From sequence record SRR31156797_1773: 57,636 nt of DNA; one strand, written 5' to 3'. The first letter of the stretch is position 1. Each line of letters begins with the position of its first letter. A program made the position numbers and the translations under genes. Below the pieces are notes generated by a model. That model ran no database searches and was not told where the DNA came from. It was given only the letters and a program-made list of their open reading frames with translations. Below are positions 15,631 to 34,637 of the stretch, piece after piece.

Positions 15631-16920
15631 ATGATAACCGATAAACTGATTCCAGAAAAGCTGGATCTGGTGATGCGTGATGATGACTTTGTGATTTATT
15701 ACGACGGTAAACCGATGAAAACTCCTGGTGGAGCACTTCTTGCTCACAGCAATGCGCGTGTGCTCAAACATATATTGATAAAGCTGCACCTGAACGCTTC
15801 TATCATTACAAAGAAGTTAAACAGTACCCATATTTTTACCTTTTTACTGGATTATATTTTAAAAGGGCATGATTTAATTGCTTCGAATTTTGAACTGGTT
15901 TTTAATCATGATTTTGTGATCATGGCGCATATGGGAGGCGATCCGGGCAAAATACACTCGAAAGATGTTGCCATCGAATATTTAATGCAGCATCCTTACC
16001 TGATGAGTCTTGTTTTTTGGAGCAATTCGGTGATCATTGAGGGTTTTAAAAGTTTTCTTAGCGGAATCGATGAACAGGCCGGTGATGAAGCTGCCAGTCC
16101 CCTGATTAAAAGGGTGAAGCGGAAATATGATGAACTTTCTGATGCACGGAAAGCCGGTGTAAACCTTCTGTCGATGCACCACAAAAATGGTTTGATTTTA
16201 CCCATGATGTTGGTACTGGGGTACATTTCACCTTCAGAATATGCAAATAGCACCTTGTCCGTGCAGGCCCGGCAGACAGACGATGGAAATCTTTTAAATG
16301 TGCTTGCTATGGCAGAAGAGGCCGGGGTAGAGTCATTTAATCTGGATGCTGAAGACCCACTTGGTTTTGTACGTGTTGTGCATGAGGAAGCCCTCAAGAC
16401 CCTTGAATTTCTTGGGTTCTTTAAGTCGGGACAGCGAAAAATTTCCGTTATCAACGAGTTGATAAGCCTTGGTGAAAGCGATCAGGTTGAATTCAAATCA
16501 ACGTTCCGCTGGGATATCCGCCAGGGAAAAAAGAACCCGGCCATCGAACATGCCTCACTCAAAACCATGGCTGCATTTCTTAATTCTGAAGGTGGCGATT
16601 TGCTTATTGGAGTAGAAGATGATGGAAATATCCTGGGCGTTGAACTGGATAACTTTCCCAACGACGATAAATTTCTGCTTCACCTATGGTCGCTCATCAA
16701 ATCATCGATGGGGCAGGACATTAGTCCGTTTATCAAAACCACATTGGAAAAAATGGATGGGAAAACGGTTTGCCGGGTGCATTGCCTGCCAGGTTCCAAG
16801 CCGGTTTTTTTGCGTCAAAAAGGTTTTGATGAGTCCTTTTATATCCGCATTGGCCCATCAAGTGGCAGGCTCGAAATCAGTGAGGCCTTAAAATATATTG
16901 CCGACAGGTTTAAATCCTGA
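15631..16920 (+). CDS. Schlafen/AlbA_2 domain protein with ATP12-chaperone-like N-terminal region
   Basis: C-terminal GESDQVEFKST, AAFLNSEGGDLLIGVEDDG..LG, FYIRIG; N-terminal FVIYYDGKPMKTPGG resembles the ATP12 LDGRxxKTP motif. Confidence 0.8.
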   Translation: MITDKLIPEKLDLVMRDDDFVIYYDGKPMKTPGGALLAHSNARVLKHILIKLHLNASIITKKLNSTHIFTFLLDYILKGHDLIASNFELVFNHDFVIMAHMGGDPGKIHSKDVAIEYLMQHPYLMSLVFWSNSVIIEGFKSFLSGIDEQAGDEAASPLIKRVKRKYDELSDARKAGVNLLSMHHKNGLILPMMLVLGYISPSEYANSTLSVQARQTDDGNLLNVLAMAEEAGVESFNLDAEDPLGFVRVVHEEALKTLEFLGFFKSGQRKISVINELISLGESDQVEFKSTFRWDIRQGKKNPAIEHASLKTMAAFLNSEGGDLLIGVEDDGNILGVELDNFPNDDKFLLHLWSLIKSSMGQDISPFIKTTLEKMDGKTVCRVHCLPGSKPVFLRQKGFDESFYIRIGPSSGRLEISEALKYIADRFKS

Positions 16921-16924
16921 CGAT

Positions 16925-17395
16925 TCAGAGTTTAAAAATCAGCCTGTCGCCCTCAAAGTTTACTTTATCCATTTTTTTGCCTGCTTTTTTCAGGTTATCA
17001 AAACCGAGGATGCAAATAAAAGCACCCACTGCAGTAACACCAACTCCCAAATCCATGAGGTTTTGGCGATCGTCTCTGTAACCCAGATATGCCACCGTTC
17101 CACCAACCAGGGCTATCCCGGCTCCGAATTTGAGATTTCTTGAAGCTTTGATCATTTCTTCGCCTGGTGTGGTATAAAAATTATTCACCAGGTGTGCTGC
17201 AGTTTCGTCCATGGCCAGCGCATGATGCACCTCCTCAGACCCCTTAAACTCAGTGAAAAATATACTGTCATTTCGGATTTCCTCGATTACGCATTCATAC
17301 CTTACACCGCTTTTCAGATATACCACATCAATATCTTTTTGCGCAAATGATAGGAAGGATGCCATGAGCAATGGCAAGGCTAATAATCTTTTCAT
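16925..17395 (-). CDS. Hypothetical secreted protein with C-terminal hydrophobic hairpin
   Basis: Signal peptide ending SFAQ, DVVYLKSG motif, two Gly-rich hydrophobic segments. Confidence 0.75.
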   Translation of the reverse strand: MKRLLALPLLMASFLSFAQKDIDVVYLKSGVRYECVIEEIRNDSIFFTEFKGSEEVHHALAMDETAAHLVNNFYTTPGEEMIKASRNLKFGAGIALVGGTVAYLGYRDDRQNLMDLGVGVTAVGAFICILGFDNLKKAGKKMDKVNFEGDRLIFKL

Positions 17396-17493
17396 CTGTC
17401 CCCTTTTTTGATTTTGTTTGCCCTACAAAGTAAATGAATTTTTAGATTTTTTAAGGGTTAAAATGGGCAAAATACGGGATGAGCTGTTTTTTA

Positions 17494-18897
17494 CTATCCA
17501 TAAGTCAGGCCGGTAAGATCCAGTATTTTGACGGTCGGGTTGTGGTCGAGGTGTGACCTGATGATGGAATGAACATGCTTGTTTTCGGTGTATGGTTTCA
17601 CAGCGTCCTTCATGAAATCGATATTATTTCCGGTATCTCCATGCAATGATATAAACCCAAAACCATGATATCTGCCATGCTCTATCCATACCACGGATTG
17701 CTCATCATCCGTCCTGCCCTCGCCAAGGATCATAAAACTGGCGTTTTTGTATGCATATCGCTCGATGGCTTTATCAACACGGGCATTGTATTCATCAGGA
17801 GATTCTTCACCAATGCAGGCGCCATAACATGCTTTGATTTTGTATTGAAAACATGAGTTTTTCGAATCGTACAAACCACATAGTTTCTGACAAAGGTTGT
17901 GGTCTTCACACAGTTGAAAAAGGAAATTTTTTGCCGACATTGATGAGTTAAACGTGGTGAGAGGAGGATCGCCGTCGCAGTCATCCAACTTACAGATTTT
18001 CAAACGAAGATATCCCTCTTCGTCGGGGAAGCAAAACAGGCCATGGTTATACATGCTGCGGCGTTGTGCCCGGTTAAACTGCGGAAGGTGTTTTTGAATT
18101 TCATGCGATTCGAGCAACAGTGCAATCAGTTCGTTGCCGGTTTGTTCACAGGTGATCTGTGCCACCTTGTTCTTCATTTCCAGAGCGCGTTTGGTTGAAC
18201 AATTGGAAAGGTGCGACAACACACGGCTTTTGATATTTTTGCTTTTTCCCACATAAATAATGTTGCCTTTTTCATCCAGGAAGTAATACACGCCGGGTTC
18301 CTCGGGCAGGGCTTTAATGTCTTGCTGATCCAGGTTGCTATTGAGGCCCTGCAAATTGATCTCAGCGGGATTTGGGTCAATAGATAGTAAGAACGAAAAC
18401 AGGTCGGCAGTTGCCCGGGCATCGCCAATCGCCCTATGCGGCTGGTGGTTTGTTATTTCCAGTTCCTCACAAATATTTTTCAGGCTGTACGATCTTTTGT
18501 GTGGTACCAGTTTCCGGCTTAGCTTTACGGTGCAAAGTTTTTCACGCCTAAAATCGTAACCCAGATATTTGAATTCCTGCCTGAGGAAATTGTAATCGAA
18601 ACTGGCATTGTGGGCAACAAGGATACAATCTTCTGTCATTTCCACGACCTGTTTGGCGACTTCAAAAAATTTGGGCGCATTTTCAACCATGCGGTCGCTG
18701 ATGCCGGTAAGTTGTTGTATCCGATAGGGAATGCGCTGTTCCGGGTTGATGAGCGAACTAAACTCATCAATTACCCGTGAACCATCATGTATCAAAATGG
18801 CTATTTCGGTGATCTTCCCGTTTTTGTAGCTGGTGCCGGTGGTTTCAACATCAACAATGGCATATTTTAAACCTTCCGATTTATTGTTATCGCCCAT
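17494..18897 (-). CDS. DEDDh 3'-5' exonuclease (DnaQ-like) fused to GIY-YIG (UvrC/Cho-like) nuclease
   Basis: DVETTG, AHNASFD, HRAIGDA; PGVYYF...IIYVGKSKNIKSRV..H; Cys cluster LCQKLC...CF...C.GAC. Confidence 0.92.
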   Translation of the reverse strand: MGDNNKSEGLKYAIVDVETTGTSYKNGKITEIAILIHDGSRVIDEFSSLINPEQRIPYRIQQLTGISDRMVENAPKFFEVAKQVVEMTEDCILVAHNASFDYNFLRQEFKYLGYDFRREKLCTVKLSRKLVPHKRSYSLKNICEELEITNHQPHRAIGDARATADLFSFLLSIDPNPAEINLQGLNSNLDQQDIKALPEEPGVYYFLDEKGNIIYVGKSKNIKSRVLSHLSNCSTKRALEMKNKVAQITCEQTGNELIALLLESHEIQKHLPQFNRAQRRSMYNHGLFCFPDEEGYLRLKICKLDDCDGDPPLTTFNSSMSAKNFLFQLCEDHNLCQKLCGLYDSKNSCFQYKIKACYGACIGEESPDEYNARVDKAIERYAYKNASFMILGEGRTDDEQSVVWIEHGRYHGFGFISLHGDTGNNIDFMKDAVKPYTENKHVHSIIRSHLDHNPTVKILDLTGLTYG

Positions 18898-23058: not shown

Positions 23059-23958
23059 TTATTCAAATTTATCGCCATCAACTTTTATCTTTCTTACCAA
23101 CAGTGCAACATAAACAATAGTTAGCCAAATGCCAATGGCCACCAATGAGAAACCGGCAAGTAGCCACAGTGGAATGTAATCGTTGTTTTTCCAAAGTGCA
23201 CGGCGTTCTGTCCAGTGATCTTTTGGGTTGATCAGGCCCCACTCTATTTCTGAGGTGGCTTCAGCCGGGTTGTATTCCATATCTTCGATACTCGCCACAA
23301 TATTCAAAACACCATTTTCATCACCAATGATATCATTGGGGAAAGTAACGGTAACTTCACCATTTTCATTGGTGTATTGTGTTTGGTTGAGAATGGACAA
23401 TGTGCCAAAATACCGTTCAACACCCAGGGTTACTTTAATCCGTTCTGCAGGGCTTTTTGTGCCATCATCAGCAACCTGTTCCACCTTTGCAGTCAATTCC
23501 TTCTTTTCTCCCTCCTCATTGAAAAACAGTGCGACTACCGCGTTTTTCATCACAAGGTCTTCGCGTTTTTTGGAAAGGGTTCTGATATAGTTAATTACAT
23601 TCCAAAGCTGTTCATCTGGCAATGCGGCAAAACTCGGCATCTGGCCGCGGCCTTCCTGTAGTTTCCAGAAAACTGCACCATCAGATTGTTGTTGGAATTT
23701 TTCATCAACCAGGCTTCCAGATTTAATCAGACCATCACCTTTGCCCTGCTCGCCATGGCAGGCTTTACATTGCAGATCAAAAAGGGCTTTACCGGCTTCA
23801 AGTGATGCTTTGTTGTCTTCGACAGGATTTTCAACGGCTGCTGCATTATCCGGAACTGGCCATGGAGGAAAGTCCTGCGCAATGGCAAAATAACTGCTAA
23901 AAATAAAAACCAGTAAAAGCGAACCAATTGTATATTTCTTGTTTCCAGTCATGTTCAT
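23059..23958 (-). CDS. Monoheme cytochrome c with Ig-like domain and C-terminal membrane anchor
   Basis: Signal peptide, CKACHG heme motif, distal GQMPSF, C-terminal TM helix; ATG at 23958 directly after the nrfD-like stop. Confidence 0.88.
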   Translation of the reverse strand: MNMTGNKKYTIGSLLLVFIFSSYFAIAQDFPPWPVPDNAAAVENPVEDNKASLEAGKALFDLQCKACHGEQGKGDGLIKSGSLVDEKFQQQSDGAVFWKLQEGRGQMPSFAALPDEQLWNVINYIRTLSKKREDLVMKNAVVALFFNEEGEKKELTAKVEQVADDGTKSPAERIKVTLGVERYFGTLSILNQTQYTNENGEVTVTFPNDIIGDENGVLNIVASIEDMEYNPAEATSEIEWGLINPKDHWTERRALWKNNDYIPLWLLAGFSLVAIGIWLTIVYVALLVRKIKVDGDKFE

Positions 23959-29758: not shown

Positions 29759-30100
29759 ATGAAAGCTTTAAAAATGGTTTTAGTCACAATATTTGTTGTA
29801 TTTAGTGTAATGACATATTCCAGTGAATCTAATTCGCTGTCAGTTTCAAAGGTACCAGTAATGCTTGCGCATACTACAGCAAAGCATCTGCCAGAAGTTG
29901 TTTATTCTATAAATACCCAGGTTAATCCTGAGGTGTTGCTGGCCAGCAGCGAAAAAGTAATGCTCACAGCTAATGTAAAAGTTGATACACACAGTTACAT
30001 AATTTATGGTACCTACAAAGAATGGTATGAATTCTTTTATTCAAACGAGAAAAACATTCCCTTTGAGCAAGCAGATAAGTCCGAACGAAAAACGGAGTAA
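29759..30100 (+). CDS. Small secreted protein, paralog 3 of 3
   Basis: Signal peptide; QVNPEVLL...A.V......IIYGTYKEWYEF; C-terminus PFEQADKSERKTE matches paralog 1 PSEKADKSGKKIE. Confidence 0.88.
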   Translation: MKALKMVLVTIFVVFSVMTYSSESNSLSVSKVPVMLAHTTAKHLPEVVYSINTQVNPEVLLASSEKVMLTANVKVDTHSYIIYGTYKEWYEFFYSNEKNIPFEQADKSERKTE

Positions 30101-30120
30101 TTAGTTAGTCTATAGGATGG

Positions 30121-30144
30121 AAGCCGCCTTCGCGTGGCTTTTTT
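30121..30144 (+). terminator. Intrinsic terminator of paralog 3
   Basis: AAGCCGC-CTTCGC-GTGGCTT followed by a T tract. Confidence 0.75.
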
Positions 30145-30623
30145 ATACCCTGGCTTCAAGGTATATCTCTTTGGTTAAAATGCTGGTTTGTCTGTTCACG
30201 AAAATATGTTTGATTATTGATACCAGCTCTGATATGTATCTGGTAATATTATGAAACGGAGCATCAAACGTTGGTGCTCAAGGTGAGATAATTGTCAGGT
30301 AACTGGCTTTCCTTTAAAAAATTCTCATGCACACTTTTTCATATGCACAAACCACATAATTGTGCCCTCAAAGTAATTCGTGATTGAGCGGAAAGTGCGG
30401 GAAATGTTTTAAATCAAAAAAAATTGCCATTATTTTGGGTTTAAAAGGCTACCCATAAAGTCACTTTACCAGGTTTAAATATTTTTTTACCATCCATCAC
30501 TTCTGAAACAGACCAGCAATTAGACACAGGCATAATGCTATGAAAAGGTGGTTACTATTGCTGTCTTTAACCAGGCTCAAAACGTTAACAATGAACAGTT
30601 GGAATAGGTCCGAATAAAACCAT

Positions 30624-30654
30624 AAAAGGAAAGCTGCCAGGACAGCAGCTTTCC
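30624..30654 (-). terminator. Intrinsic terminator of the kinase/regulator operon
   Basis: Minus strand GGAAAGCTGC-TGTCCTG-GCAGCTTTCC-TTTT. Confidence 0.85.
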
Positions 30655-30693
30655 AAAGGGGCAAATGAAAAAGGGGGTAAAAAGGGGCAAATC
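30655..30693 (-). repeat. Three C-rich repeats in the 3' UTR (candidate sRNA seed)
   Basis: Plus strand AAAGGGGCAAATG, AAAGGGGGTAAA, AAAGGGGCAAATC. Confidence 0.7.
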
Positions 30694-30717
30694 AAAAATT
30701 CAAAATGGCTTTGTCTT

Positions 30718-31356
30718 TTAATCAACAAAATCATTTTCAACAGCCCAGCGAACCAGGCCTGCGGTATTTTTTGTCCCGCTCTTGTGCATTAGGTTTGCAC
30801 GATGACTTTCCACAGTGTGAAAACTGATAAAAAGCTTATCGGCAATTTCCTGTGATGAGTGTTCCTTGCATATCAGGTTCAGGATCTCCAACTCACGCGC
30901 GGTAAGTTTCGGGAAAAGAGAACTTGTGTTCTCAAGTTTTAATTCCTGATTTACGAGGCTTATGGATAAATGTGGACTGAAATACTTTTCTCCCTGGTTA
31001 ACTTTTTGTATGGCCTCAATAAGGTCGTCCCTACTCGAATCTTTAAGCAGATAACCGTCAGCACCATACTTGAGCATTCGTTTTACAAATCGTTTTTCGC
31101 TGTATTGCGAGAGGGCAATAATTTTAACTCCGGGAAATGCCCTGGTAACTTTTTTTGTGGCATCGAGCCCGTCGAGCTTGGGCATATTGATGTCCATCAG
31201 GATCACATCCACCTCAAGGCCTTCTTCAAGTTGCCTGATCACCTCGTAACCATTGGATGCGTCGGCAACGATCTCAACTTCAGTTGAATCGGCAAGCGTT
31301 GTTTTAATGCCACCAATCATCAACGGGTGATCATCGGCAATCATAATTTTAATCAT
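30718..31356 (-). CDS. NarL/LuxR-family response regulator
   Basis: IADDH, ILMDINMP, GADGYLLK receiver; LTARELEIL..I......EIADKLFIS.HTVESHRANLM.K LuxR HTH. Confidence 0.96.
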   Translation of the reverse strand: MIKIMIADDHPLMIGGIKTTLADSTEVEIVADASNGYEVIRQLEEGLEVDVILMDINMPKLDGLDATKKVTRAFPGVKIIALSQYSEKRFVKRMLKYGADGYLLKDSSRDDLIEAIQKVNQGEKYFSPHLSISLVNQELKLENTSSLFPKLTARELEILNLICKEHSSQEIADKLFISFHTVESHRANLMHKSGTKNTAGLVRWAVENDFVD

Positions 31357-31368
31357 ACCTGAATTTTT

Positions 31369-33459
31369 TTAGTTTGTCGATACATTTAAGGTAAATCTGG
31401 TACCTTGTCCCGGTGATGAAATCATATTAATATTTCCTCCCAGGTATTCTGAACGTGACTTAATGCTGGTAAGGCCAATTGTCTTTTGCCCAATTTTCTC
31501 ATCAACATTAAATCCTTTGCCATTGTCCCGATACTCAAGAGTAAGTGTATTATCTTGAATTTTTATCATGAGTATAACCTCAGTTGCCTCAGCATGTTTA
31601 ATGGTGTTATTGATCATTTCCTGTACAATACGGTAGAGCATAAACTCCTTCCGCTCTGAAAATCGCTGTTCTTCACCTTCAATCGTGAAATGGGCTTTAA
31701 TTGTACCTGATTCATTTACTTGTTCTATCAGGTCGTCAACTGCTTCAAACAAACCATACTTTGAAAGCAAGCCCGGCATCATGTTGTGGGTTATTTTTCT
31801 AACCTCGTTTGCTGCCATTTCCAGCAACTTGGTAGCGTTGTTGATTTTAGGCCGGTTATCAGGGTTGATGCCATCAATGGAAGTAAACTGCATTTTTGCA
31901 GTCGATAGCAATACCCCGATGCCATCATGCAATTCTTTGGCAATGCGTTTGCGTTCCTCTTCCTGGCCTTCGAGCAAAAACTGGGCGGAAATCAGTTTTT
32001 TGTCTTTTTCGAGTTGCCGGATTCGTTGCATGGCCAAATAGTTATCATTTTTACTTTTGGCTCTCAAAAATATAAATACGAAAACTGCAATTAAAACGAT
32101 TCCTGCGGTTAAAAACAGGTATATGTTGCGCTGGTTGGTTCGTTTCCTGAGTATGAGGTCTTTTTCCAGGTTTAAGTTGGTTAGCGTAAGGATTCTGGCC
32201 TGGTCTTCTTCACGCTCATAAATCATTCGTAGTTCCGCAATGTCTTTCTTGTTTAGCTGATTCAGAATACTGTCTCTGCTTTTATAATAAGCAGTTTGAA
32301 AATAAAGGGCATTTTTATAATCCTTTACATCCAGGTAGTAACTGTGATATTTATCCATGATATCGATTATGGTCTCATAGGATCCGATTGTTTTAGCCAT
32401 TCTGTAACTCGAATCCAATAATGTCTTGGCTTCTGGCTTGAGTCCAAGCTTTGCAAGCGCTTCCCCTTTGCTCGAAACTGCAGTAATGTAGCCAATGGGA
32501 TAGCTTTCGAAGGTAAACGTTTCCAGGGTAAGGTTGAACTTTTCAAGAGCCTTTTTATATGCATTCTTTTTTAAATACAGATTACCCATGTTAATACGCA
32601 GATTATTGATCCCTATTATATTATCAAGGCTTTGCATTATTTTATATGACTTATTAAAGAACATCATCGCTGAATCCAAATGGTCAGATTTCATTTCAAC
32701 AATGCCGAGCTTGGTATAGGCAAGAGCAACATGATTGAGATTGCTGATTTTACGGTTAAACGGGATGCTCCGTATCAAGTAATCACGAGCCAGAGAATCG
32801 TAACCCATGAGCATGTACAGATCTCCAATATTGATTAAAGCTGCTGCAATTCCAATTTCAAAATTTTTGTTTTCAGATTTTTTTAAAACTTCGAGAAAAT
32901 ATTTTGCTGCTACCTGATACATCGCAAACTTTTTGTAAATGATACCCAGCATATTTCCGGCACTGATTTGACCGTCCTCGTACCTTAGTTTTTGAAATAT
33001 TTCATTTGCCTGTAAAGCATATACAAGTGCTGAGTCAGGACCATAAACCCTGCTTAAAATTTTACTCTTTTGTAGATACCCATTTGCAAATGCAGCACTA
33101 TCATTTGTTAATTTTGCCAGTCTCAGATAAGTTTCTGTGTAGATTAGAGCACTATCAAATTTACCGCTTATTTTAAATGCATTGGTCAGGCTGTATGCGA
33201 TTAATTTTTGACCTTTAATGTATTTGAGATCCTGAGCTATTTCGTAAGCCTCTGTTCCGGTTTTTTGTGCTTCTGTTGGATTGCTTTTGTGAATATCTTT
33301 TATCCAGTTGTTGATGCTGTCAATTTTAGCTTTGTTGTTTTTATGATTAAGAAATGGATTAACAGGTTCATCATTAGCATTTGCCGGTAGGTAGTTTACG
33401 CAAATCAATAGTGATAAACATAAATAAGCAGCCTGATATATCCAATGTCTTATTAGCAT
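31369..33459 (-). CDS. TPR-repeat membrane sensor histidine kinase (HisKA_3 + HATPase)
   Basis: Signal peptide, TPR-like repeats (NMLGIIY, INIGDLY, TKLGIV, INMGNLY), one TM helix, EEERKRIAKELHDGIG, YRIVQE..NN..KHA, DNGKGF, GQGT. Confidence 0.95.
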   Translation of the reverse strand: MLIRHWIYQAAYLCLSLLICVNYLPANANDEPVNPFLNHKNNKAKIDSINNWIKDIHKSNPTEAQKTGTEAYEIAQDLKYIKGQKLIAYSLTNAFKISGKFDSALIYTETYLRLAKLTNDSAAFANGYLQKSKILSRVYGPDSALVYALQANEIFQKLRYEDGQISAGNMLGIIYKKFAMYQVAAKYFLEVLKKSENKNFEIGIAAALINIGDLYMLMGYDSLARDYLIRSIPFNRKISNLNHVALAYTKLGIVEMKSDHLDSAMMFFNKSYKIMQSLDNIIGINNLRINMGNLYLKKNAYKKALEKFNLTLETFTFESYPIGYITAVSSKGEALAKLGLKPEAKTLLDSSYRMAKTIGSYETIIDIMDKYHSYYLDVKDYKNALYFQTAYYKSRDSILNQLNKKDIAELRMIYEREEDQARILTLTNLNLEKDLILRKRTNQRNIYLFLTAGIVLIAVFVFIFLRAKSKNDNYLAMQRIRQLEKDKKLISAQFLLEGQEEERKRIAKELHDGIGVLLSTAKMQFTSIDGINPDNRPKINNATKLLEMAANEVRKITHNMMPGLLSKYGLFEAVDDLIEQVNESGTIKAHFTIEGEEQRFSERKEFMLYRIVQEMINNTIKHAEATEVILMIKIQDNTLTLEYRDNGKGFNVDEKIGQKTIGLTSIKSRSEYLGGNINMISSPGQGTRFTLNVSTN

Positions 33460-33500
33460 TTGCCCCTAAATTTTGTTGTTTTATTGGCCTGATTGGTTAC

Positions 33501-33959
33501 CTAGGCCTGATTCTCCTCCTCCAGGATGGGTTCTTCCATGATCCTGACCAGATCAATATCAGCGTCTTCAGAAATGTAGGTAACTGTTTTCCGGCCATCT
33601 GATCCGGCAACTTCCACCGTTACACGGTACCTTGACATTAAAGCATCGTCCTGCCCCTGATACCATAGTGCGCAATTGCCTACTGTTCTGGCGGTTCCAT
33701 CGTCAGGCCTTGAACACTTGCCAAGGCTCACCGTATCTGTATATCTGTATTGGGTATCTCTGTTGTAATTGGTGTCTGTTGTTACATCTTCAGTAAAAAT
33801 GTATTTGATTTTGGTTTTATCGTTGCCTTCAAATATGTGAGATTGGGGTGGTACAAGTTTTTTACCCTTAAACTGTGGAAGCCTGATGTTTACATCCAAT
33901 TTGATGTCGTCACCATCTGGTCTTACAGACAGGCCAACGAAGGATTCATAATTTTTCAT
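33501..33959 (-). CDS. Hypothetical protein (152 aa) with ISEDADIDL motif
   Basis: Open frame directly upstream of the kinase; motif shared with the next ORF. Confidence 0.8.
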   Translation of the reverse strand: MKNYESFVGLSVRPDGDDIKLDVNIRLPQFKGKKLVPPQSHIFEGNDKTKIKYIFTEDVTTDTNYNRDTQYRYTDTVSLGKCSRPDDGTARTVGNCALWYQGQDDALMSRYRVTVEVAGSDGRKTVTYISEDADIDLVRIMEEPILEEENQA

Positions 33960-34012: not shown

Positions 34013-34426
34013 TTACGCAGTAAGGTCTATATCTGCATCTTCTGAAATACCGGTAATGTTGCTGCCCTCAATTGAGCCATCAGTTTCTTTAAAGACTGCG
34101 TTAAGTTTGAACCGTGCATTATAGCCGTATTGACTTAAATAGTCTTTGATAATAACCCTGAGCTTCTCATCGGTAACTTCATTTGGAATTTGAACTATAA
34201 TACTGAGTTTGATTTCCAGCGTAGCTGTAAAGTTGCCGGCGATTCCGGTCTGTGGCCTTTTTTTGAAAATTACTTCAAACTCAATGCCTGAACCATTGAT
34301 CACTATTTGGTCATAGGTAATTTGGTCAGTAACTATTTTATTGATTACAGATTTTAAATAAATTGCATTTTGCTTTTTATGGTATACAAAGCTTAGTTTT
34401 TGAAAGATTTCATTTGATTTTTTCAT
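34013..34426 (-). CDS. Hypothetical protein (137 aa) ending ISEDADIDLTA
   Basis: Open frame co-oriented with the kinase operon; motif shared with the previous ORF. Confidence 0.8.
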   Translation of the reverse strand: MKKSNEIFQKLSFVYHKKQNAIYLKSVINKIVTDQITYDQIVINGSGIEFEVIFKKRPQTGIAGNFTATLEIKLSIIVQIPNEVTDEKLRVIIKDYLSQYGYNARFKLNAVFKETDGSIEGSNITGISEDADIDLTA

Positions 34427-34571
34427 TGCTGGAAATTTTGTGGGTTAATATGCCCATAAAGGTACAACATTTTGAACGTCAATGCAAATCATACTATTAT
34501 AATCTTATGACACCACAATATTAATTTGAATTTATGGTACATATATAACTGAAATTGATGATAAGAAAAAA

Positions 34572-34587
34572 TAGCAGAATTCTGCCA
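34572..34587. promoter_or_regulatory. Palindromic operator-like site TAGCAGAATTCTGCCA
   Basis: Core GCAGAATTCTGC is a perfect palindrome; both halves match the TTCWGCYA half-site of the three paralog promoters. Confidence 0.6.
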
Positions 34588-34637
34588 GTGAATGTGCGTG
34601 GACAGAATAACTGTAGCTTTGTACTTTATTTAAGATT

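Follow-up and report, generated by a model that had tools for sequence, protein, structure and literature searches.

A candidate clade-specific C-rich RNA element at the 3' end of a two-component operon in a Bacteroidales genome

Within a 57,636-base stretch of DNA (record SRR31156797_1773; hereafter the window), we analyzed the 94 nt that follow the gene of a NarL-type response regulator, which lies together with its operon on the minus strand. This interval (30624..30717) is the untranslated 3' region (3'UTR) and intrinsic terminator of a four-gene operon comprising two small open reading frames (ORFs), a TPR histidine kinase, and the regulator, and the host is a Bacteroidales genome that is poor in Shine-Dalgarno (SD) sequences and resembles Lentimicrobiaceae. 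We tentatively favor, with somewhat less than even confidence, the reading that this tail carries a functional, clade-specific 3'-end RNA element of the C-rich-arm kind that acts by pairing. The last ~57 nt would then constitute a single-copy RNA element restricted to one clade, in which a single-stranded C-run (UUUGCCCC) stands 2-9 nt upstream of a conserved terminator hairpin and U-tract, and the window genome has multiplied the C-run to three copies. Such an element would most likely act at the RNA level, its exposed C-rich arm pairing with rare G-rich (SD-like) mRNA stretches or holding a protein, either while part of the full-length mRNA of the operon or after processing, as a 3' fragment with the same terminator. 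Since the C-runs are predicted to be unpaired and a C-run also stands by the terminator in three other genomes, an RNA-level role for the 3'UTR is plausible, and pairing is favored because exposed C-runs pair with G-rich RNA in the best-studied cases (icaR, RNAIII, and RsaE).

Anatomy and conservation of the regulator 3'UTR

Downstream of the regulator stop codon (TAA at 30720-30718), the RNA-sense sequence is UAAAAGACAAAGCCAUUUUGAAUUUUUGAUUUGCCCCUUUUUACCCCCUUUUUCAUUUGCCCCUUUGGAAAGCUGCUGUCCUGGCAGCUUUCCUUUUAUGG, and re-reading it bore out in every detail the original prediction of C-rich repeats between stop and terminator. The repeats form a loose tandem array with a period of ~11-13 nt according to Tandem Repeats Finder (TRF), with two 18-nt copies (30655-30672 and 30681-30698) that are 94% alike, and all three C-runs (Table 1) are unpaired in both the minimum free energy (MFE) and centroid folds, where they lie between a weak 5' hairpin and the terminator. 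The terminator stem is placed 63 nt past the stop and forms in both folds; this hairpin (30654-30628) is the sole terminator-like site behind the regulator gene and has the parts of an intrinsic terminator, i.e., a G+C-rich stem-loop with a directly following U-tract, downstream of a stop codon. By its position the tail also shares the terminator of its parent mRNA, as 3'UTR-derived small RNAs do. As a reference set we used 32 window genes (ORFs of at least 120 aa with ATG starts, taken by greedy non-overlap, so that shorter genes and GTG or TTG starts are dropped), and the regulator alone among them has at least two C-runs within 100 nt after its stop.

The -7 box of Bacteroidetes promoters has the form TAnnTTTG, and taken in this form it has no match on the sense strand between 30640 and 31000, so that a separate small RNA would have to arise through processing of the mRNA. 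A sigma-70 promoter scan of the window relied on a model that is not applicable to Bacteroidota. Searching the whole window against Rfam 15 (including FopS, GibS, rteR, and RsaE) gave no match at gathering thresholds, and at E <= 5 within 29900-30900 it gave only rteR at 20 bits (gathering threshold 72; 30402-30467 on the minus strand) and a spurious long non-coding RNA match.

For comparative analysis, the closest relatives of the kinase were found at loci L001 (52% identity; genome G001, an uncultured Lentimicrobiaceae bacterium), L003 (50%; G002, a Bacteroidales metagenome-assembled genome in which the C-terminal end of the kinase lies on L006), and L002 (39%; G003). All three have the gene order of the window (divergent SpoU-type methylase, two small ORFs, kinase, regulator), and their regulators are 76-80% identical to that of the window. 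Among 23 family genomes, 9 had kinase matches, and an adjacent regulator with 73-80% identity was present at seven loci (in G001, G002, G019, G003, G011, G005, and G006).

In the 3'UTRs of the window, G001, G002, and G019, the hairpins are similar in sequence and followed by a U-tract, and a C-run lies 2-9 nt upstream (Table 1), with UUUGCCCC as the C-run core and GCUGCY-NCCC-GGYAGC as the hairpin consensus; the window genome has three C-runs and the orthologs one or two. A covariance model (CM) built from the three orthologous loci with the window excluded (R2) placed its top window match at 30624-30680 on the minus strand, with 40.8 bits and a roughly calibrated E-value of 4.5e-8, and the runner-up was an ordinary terminator at 22.4 bits. 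Across the 23 family genomes, the model of all four sequences (R1) had a single match of 62-70 bits in each of G001, G002, and G019, in every case located after the orthologous regulator, and scored no more than 31 bits elsewhere, where 10 inspected matches were generic terminators, including two right after tRNA-like ends. An exact degenerate pattern had 65 matches in 185,579 species genomes, which is about the number expected by chance according to our estimate, and the three that adjoin the regulator are those of the same three genomes. These comparisons directly support the anatomy of the element, its conservation, its single-copy status, and its fixed position behind one regulator gene.

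The elements are 64-69% identical over 51-56 columns, and neither the remaining UTR nor the DNA beyond the U-tract aligns among the loci. At conserved codons of four-fold type in the regulator gene, third positions agree in 35-46% among the four element-bearing loci, and in 24-46% when L002 is added. Within the hairpin, 95% of 40 cells are paired over the four loci and 3 of 10 pairs change on both sides (equalled by 14 of 500 shuffles); one stem pair is seen as A-U, G-U, and G-C, and sliding the partners by 1-3 columns lowers pairing to 25-62%. Directly upstream, a run of at least 4 C occurs in the last 22 nt before the stem at all four loci (P = 0.0066), and the 8-mer UUUGCCCC occurs there at three of the four (P = 0.0006; 5,000 shuffles, with the 22-nt window picked after seeing the data).

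A simpler explanation, which we regard as less probable but as a strong rival, is that the tail is a plain intrinsic terminator, in which case the hairpin would be kept for termination, the C- and U-runs would be slow-drifting low-complexity filler, and the complementarity to the kinase start described below would be chance. The hairpin and U-tract are textbook-like, and since the terminator itself is under selection, part of the conservation needs no further function. Several other observations weigh against an additional RNA function. The 8-mer common to three of the four whole UTRs has P = 0.08 without positional restriction, and leave-one-out nhmmer searches with the two halves of the element recovered nothing at the locus with the upstream half and the hairpin half only at E = 0.37. 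Similarly, BLAST between the elements gave 9-nt matches only, and with four loci the covariation is thin, as 5 of the 10 stem pairs never vary. The kinase match, for its part, has P = 0.007-0.05 before correction for the search of the whole window. Finally, orthologs with 52-76% identical regulators lack the element, and distant ones use other terminators. What a plain terminator leaves unexplained is that the specific stem sequence, the CCC-containing loop, and the upstream C-run are not needed for termination, yet are kept while synonymous-type sites are near saturation; the fixed place of the C-run next to the stem and the absence of repeated C-runs behind the other reference genes speak in the same direction. 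We infer that the C-run may have been selected for pairing or binding, and we infer likewise all functional consequences discussed here.

The distribution of the element beyond the four loci is narrow. It was absent from the syntenic, more distant loci of G003, G005, G006, and G011, from 9 further loci in an order-wide sample of 401 genomes, and from 23 further regulator orthologs at 52-72% identity (L380, with its regulator cut at a contig end, was excluded). A metagenome scan with the regulator alignment yielded, among the matches listed, two 62-70% relatives of other gene order that do not have the element, and closer relatives may be missed by such a scan. The motif TTTGCCCCC was considered as a genome-wide repeat, being 2-3x more frequent than a reversed control in G001-G003, and this was rejected because among 30 loci inspected (of 198 matches) only the match at the regulator locus L176 precedes a hairpin and the rest look coding.

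Other tails of interest were seen behind regulator orthologs and in the window. About 20-140 nt after the regulator stop, L206 (G005) has ~14 tandem GGAACGA-like heptamers, which are G-rich and thus the opposite of the C-rich tail of the window, followed by a different terminator. Anti-SD-like heptamers (AUCACCUCC and ACCUCCU) occur in the 3' regions of the element-less orthologs L207 (G006) and L205 (G011), and UGACCUCCAUUUUU occurs at the stop of the window gene 23059-23958 (23051-23040, minus strand); both are post hoc observations. In L223 (G224) and L373, where the regulators are ~60% identical and the gene order differs, UUCCCCUUCCCCUUUUUU or CUUUCCCCUUUUUU directly follows the stop; these sequences resemble the C-run/U-run repeats of the window, and the conserved hairpin is missing there.

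Table 1 Features of the regulator 3'UTR, its operon, and the sequences compared with it (CM, covariance model; MFE, minimum free energy)
Feature	Position	Strand	Details
3'UTR of regulator gene	30624..30717	(-)	94 nt; MFE -24.2 kcal/mol, z = -2.84
Conserved element: terminator-proximal C-run(s), hairpin GCUGCU-GUCCU-GGCAGC, U-tract	30624..30680	(-)	~57 nt; CM R1 69.4 bits
Three C-runs, loose tandem repeat	30655..30698	(-)	UUUGCCCCUUUUUA / CCCCCUUUUUCA / UUUGCCCCUUU; C-runs 30684-30687, 30673-30677, 30658-30661
Intrinsic terminator hairpin	30628..30654	(-)	12 pairs, 6 G-C, loop of 3; then UUUUAU at 30622-30627 (tail UUUUAUGGUU)
Element in the window			CAUUUGCCCC-UUUGGAAA-GCUGCU-GUCCU-GGCAGC-UUU
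Element in G001			AAUUUGCCCCC-AAAUAUG-GCUGCC-GCCC-GGUAGC-CUUUU
Element in G002			GUUUGCCCCC-UUUACAAAA-GCUACC-UCCC-GGUAGC-UUUU
Element in G019			UUAACCCC-AUAAAA-GCUGCC-ACCC-GGCAGC-UUUU
Response regulator gene	30718..31356	(-)	212 aa; Pfam Response_reg 9.6e-27 and GerE 1.5e-15; NarL/FixJ type
Sensor histidine kinase gene	31369..33459	(-)	696 aa; Pfam TPR repeats, HisKA_3, HATPase_c
Kinase initiation region	33457..33467	(-)	AGGGGCAAAUG; exact complement of 30657-30667
Control: second exact 11-nt UTR complement	33000..33010	(-)	GGCAAAUGAAA; inside kinase coding region
Two upstream ORFs	33501-33959, 34013-34426	(-)	152 aa and 137 aa; no Pfam or NCBIfam family
Leader and start of 156-aa gene	17393..17409	(-)	AAAAAAGGGGACAGAUG; G-run 17400-17403; no Pfam or NCBIfam family

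The match to the kinase start codon

The original prediction had linked the repeats to a possible control of kinase translation or to a decoy for an RNA-binding protein, as one repeat was read as the exact 11-nt complement of the kinase start region including its AUG and a second copy as matching 10 nt. Exact searches confirmed both matches. CAUUUGCCCCU in the UTR is exactly complementary to AGGGGCAAAUG, the initiation region of the kinase (33467-33457), and in DNA terms the window contains AGGGGCAAATG exactly twice, on the plus strand at 30657-30667 and on the minus strand at 33457-33467, with the kinase ATG at the end of the minus-strand occurrence; the second copy was found at 30683-30693 (+) with one mismatch, i.e., a 10-nt match. 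The 3'UTR is complementary to the initiation region of a cistron on its own mRNA, as in icaR, over 11 nt including the AUG and with a nominal P of 0.0066-0.052. When up to one mismatch is allowed, AGGGGCAAATG has 6 matches in the window vs 1.98 expected, a number reached in 3 of 100 shuffles.

We then asked how often such a match arises by chance, using 20,000 dinucleotide-preserving shuffles and scoring stretches of at least 11 nt in the kinase leader (-25 to +10) that are exactly complementary to the 94-nt UTR. The resulting probability was 0.0066 with the UTR shuffled and 0.052 with the kinase leader shuffled, rates kept high by the trivial pairing of U-rich UTRs with A-rich leaders. Of the 32 window leaders, that of the kinase has the longest exact UTR match (11 nt), followed by 10 nt for the gene starting at 17395, and an equally long exact complement lies inside the kinase coding region (Table 1). 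In cofolding, the energy gain of the kinase leader (-15.9 kcal/mol) ranks second of 32, which we put within 1 kcal/mol of the next three (listed at -15.8, -15.0, and -14.7), and it is no outlier. GGGG at -16 to -4 is rare, being present in 2 of the 32 leaders including that of the kinase, and any SD-like 4-mer is present in 3. The match thus exceeds chance only marginally, and as it was picked out of the whole 57-kb window, it is suggestive at best when taken alone.

Two other readings of the 11-mer region were rejected. An inverted repeat marking a recombination site or the end of a mobile element does not fit, since the flanks of the 11-mers share nothing further and the operon is syntenic in relatives, and small ORFs over the element on either strand, including a plus-strand ORF of 18 codons starting at the AGGGGCAAATG copy, are not conserved in L001 as judged by eye.

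The relatives bear directly on the kinase. Of the syntenic loci, L001, L003, and L002 have the start of the kinase on the contig (that of G019 is off the contig), and the start methionine is invariant when aligned with L001 and L002. In all three, two with the element (L001, L003) and one without (L002), the kinase leader is A-rich and has no G-run. GGGGCAAA does not occur in L001, L002, L003, or L006, and no complement of at least 8 nt to the C-run is present anywhere in the operons of L001, L002, and L003. In other words, G001 and G002 keep UUUGCCCCC yet have A-rich kinase leaders, so the complementarity is neither kept nor co-varying in these relatives. A-rich leaders without SD sequences are described for Bacteroidetes in the sources consulted (PMC7366714, PMC7797042, PMC9976891). 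The proposal of kinase control by the repeats consequently does not carry over to homologous loci, where the leaders have no complement, and what stands of the proposed RNA-level role of the 3'UTR is the anatomy and the C-run kept by the terminator in three other genomes. Judged from these alignments, the 11-nt kinase-start match is not the conserved function; it is specific to the window genome and most likely either fortuitous or at best a young secondary target.

Kinase feedback confined to the window genome, in which the C-rich arm would pair with AGGGGCAAAUG and occlude the start codon, in cis or as a processed fragment of ~60-95 nt, appears unlikely to us. Besides the two complementary copies and the rarity of G-run leaders, it could appeal to the predicted single-strandedness of the arm, and the extra motif copies and the G-run of the kinase leader are both peculiar to the window genome, as expected if they had arisen together. 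It also has a working precedent in the icaR 3'UTR, where UCCCCUG pairs with its own SD region in a species-specific manner according to the published accounts (PMC3868564, PMC7049690). A lineage-specific kinase interaction is in this sense possible despite its non-conservation, the icaR 3'UTR mechanism itself being reported as species-specific (PMC7049690). Against it stand the leaders of L001, L003, and L002, the marginal significance, and the equally long match in the coding region, as well as reports that ribosomes of Bacteroidia do not use SD pairing (PMC7797042, PMC9976891, PMC7366714). As SD pairing is unused in this class, the G-run is no obvious ribosome-binding determinant, though pairing would cover the AUG itself. 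The absence of the kinase match from relatives that keep the C-run is directly supported, and kinase feedback is therefore probably a chance or a young, local feature. Its evolutionary version, in which one lineage expanded the element to three copies and the kinase start codon became a newly acquired target, with the kinase throttled relative to the regulator, seems to us equally improbable; under such a lineage-specific reading the arm could also act on other rare G-run leaders, e.g., that of the 156-aa gene at 17395.

Candidate partners and protein binding

The gene starting at 17395 (16925-17395, minus strand) had been singled out in the original prediction for a similar G-rich leader, and the leader is indeed G-rich (AAAAAAGGGGACAGATG). 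It gives the strongest predicted UTR pairing in the window (-23.7 kcal/mol), an outlier among the 32 leaders. Orthologs of this gene in G019 and G001 have a G-run 5-6 nt before the ATG; the same SD-like feature, however, occurs in element-less genomes (GGAGG in G012, GGGGG in G016, and GGG in G022 and G011), and no such feature is present at the leader position in G003, G013, G014, and G015. Since the G-rich leader is kept in genomes without the element, it is no evidence for a shared regulon. Among sampled leaders, that of the 156-aa gene came 3rd of 42 in G001 and 4th of 19 in G019 for pairing with the local element, its energies being ordinary, and the gene was rejected as evidence for a conserved target. 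In its own right, the gene, whose product is predicted to be a secreted or membrane protein, has a G-rich, SD-like leader (GGGG, GGGGGG, GGAGG, GGGGG, or GGG) in 7 of 11 genomes inspected (loci L345, L346, L350, L351, and L354), and judging from these leaders it may be a candidate for specialised translation in a class that is reported not to use SD sequences.

A wider search did not yield a partner either. The pattern GGGGCAAA(N0-8)ATG had 149 matches in G001, G002, and G019, which is enriched over the control and plausibly reflects Gly-Lys codons. When 30 of these 149 sites were sampled (28 loci), most lay within reading frames, at most three (L262, L261, and L257) were possible gene starts, and none of these three is orthologous to a window gene. 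The sets examined thus contained no conserved partner, and the operons of the relatives lack a complement to the C-run, both of which count against pairing as the conserved function. As a separate observation, L273 (G019) and L277 (G002, two copies ~205 nt apart) hold a reverse-strand unit AAAGGAGGAUUACAUG followed by a short frame that starts MFCPA; these units are small ORFs with a strong canonical SD, forming tandem repeats in two Bacteroidales genomes.

With no conserved RNA partner found in these sets, the tail might instead hold a protein, either at the RNA level, where a C/U-binding protein would meet a decoy or stability element, or as a DNA site, e.g., for the regulator; we consider this quite improbable. 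C-runs with U-rich spacers in a repeat of ~11-13 nt would suit a multimeric single-strand binder. In addition, the GGCAG/CTGCC of the terminator stem are the half-site pentamers of an operator-like palindrome upstream of the operon. No protein came up as a candidate, however, and the pentamers are arranged in the stem oppositely to the palindrome. Nor do the two change jointly, as L001 has a palindrome of AGCAG...CTGCU but a stem of GCUGCC/GGUAGC. For a DNA site, the repeat spacing of 13 nt is out of helical phase, and the orthologs have one or two C-runs rather than a fixed array.

The palindrome itself (GCAGAATTCTGC) is perfect, and its single copy in the window (34574-34585; context 34560-34600) lies upstream of the operon's first ORF, within the divergent intergenic region. 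At the corresponding position, L001 has two exact GCAGAATTCTGC copies 26 nt apart (2732-2743 and 2758-2769), and L003 and L002 have two variant copies each; related motif pairs also adjoin regulator orthologs of other gene order (L223, L359, and L374). From this pattern the palindrome is likely the operator of the NarL-type regulator, and such a candidate operator suggests that autoregulation of the kinase-regulator system, if any, would be transcriptional.

Operon setting and comparison with known systems

The regulator combines a receiver domain with a LuxR/GerE helix-turn-helix, and each of its best NCBIfam matches is under the respective cut-off. Both upstream ORFs are syntenic with kinase and regulator in L001, L002, and L003, and they are therefore probably part of the same operon; scanning between them and the kinase revealed no terminator-like site. 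Beyond the regulator terminator, ~470 nt (30150-30620) have no ORF of more than 45 codons and no Rfam match, up to the terminator of a plus-strand gene (hairpin near 30119-30146). Two neighbours in the window are a fusion of an RNase T/DEDDh exonuclease with a GIY-YIG nuclease (467 aa, 17494-18897, minus strand) and a protein with a Schlafen AlbA_2 domain (429 aa, 15631-16920, plus strand).

Among described systems, the icaR mRNA of Staphylococcus aureus comes closest. Its 3'UTR motif UCCCCUG is reported to pair with UAGGGGG in the SD region of that mRNA, and to work in trans in RNAIII and RsaE as well (PMC3868564); across Staphylococcus, the icaR 3'UTR interaction is described as species-specific (PMC7049690). 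The window tail resembles icaR in that an unpaired C-run in the 3'UTR of a regulator mRNA is complementary to an initiation-region G-run of the same transcript (CAUUUGCCCCU with AGGGGCAAAUG). It differs in that the partner would be a different cistron, located 2.8 kb upstream on a polycistronic mRNA, in that the host's class has ribosomes that ignore SD sequences, and in that the complement is absent in relatives; moreover, the motif lies right at the terminator rather than 260 nt after the stop. Similar to the C-rich-seed RNAs of Firmicutes (RsaE/RoxS, and UCCC motif RNAs such as RNAIII), the tail has several exposed C-runs that could pair with G-rich leaders, and its hairpin loop also contains CCC. 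RsaE is reported to act via G-rich target motifs (PMC6158497, PMC3868564). Unlike these RNAs, the window element is an mRNA tail in another phylum, and it has no sequence or structure homology to them (no Rfam match).

Within Bacteroidota, 21 UTR-derived small RNA candidates and the seed-plus-terminator FopS family, including the 3'-derived FopS-14, are reported for B. thetaiotaomicron (PMC7366714, PMC11697453), and those RNAs are described as acting near start codons in an SD-less host (PMC11697453, PMC7366714). Like the FopS/GibS-type RNAs of Bacteroides, the window tail consists of a single-stranded arm followed by a terminator (PMC11697453). FopS RNAs, by the account of their paper, are multicopy, have their own promoters, and are deposited in Rfam (PMC11697453), whereas the window element is single-copy, matches no Rfam model, lacks a -7-box-like motif in the interval scanned, and has a C-rich seed. 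Finally, the tail is like an ordinary Rho-independent terminator in its G+C-rich stem of 10-12 pairs, its short loop, its U-tract, and its distance from the stop, and unlike one in keeping stem sequence, CCC loop, and adjacent C-run at this degree of synonymous divergence. The idea is thus not new in kind, being that of an icaR/RsaE-like C-rich arm borne by a 3'UTR, and the element itself belongs to no described RNA family.

In practical terms, our analysis gave a clean negative for kinase feedback as a conserved trait, and it defined a candidate element of 57 nt with four members, together with a covariance model that recovers this element. If the kinase reading were true, anti-initiation pairing of the icaR kind would be at work on the polycistronic mRNA of a two-component system, in a class with ribosomes that ignore SD sequences. 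What is known of post-transcriptional control in Bacteroidota comes from a handful of small RNAs of Bacteroides, and C-rich arms of this kind have been characterised so far mainly in Firmicutes. Should the element be functional, it would be a conserved 3'UTR-borne RNA element on a two-component system in an uncultured Bacteroidales clade and would bring the C-rich-arm kind to a new phylum. Given the rarity of G-run leaders in such an SD-blind host (2 of 32 here), regulation by a C-rich arm could be very selective.

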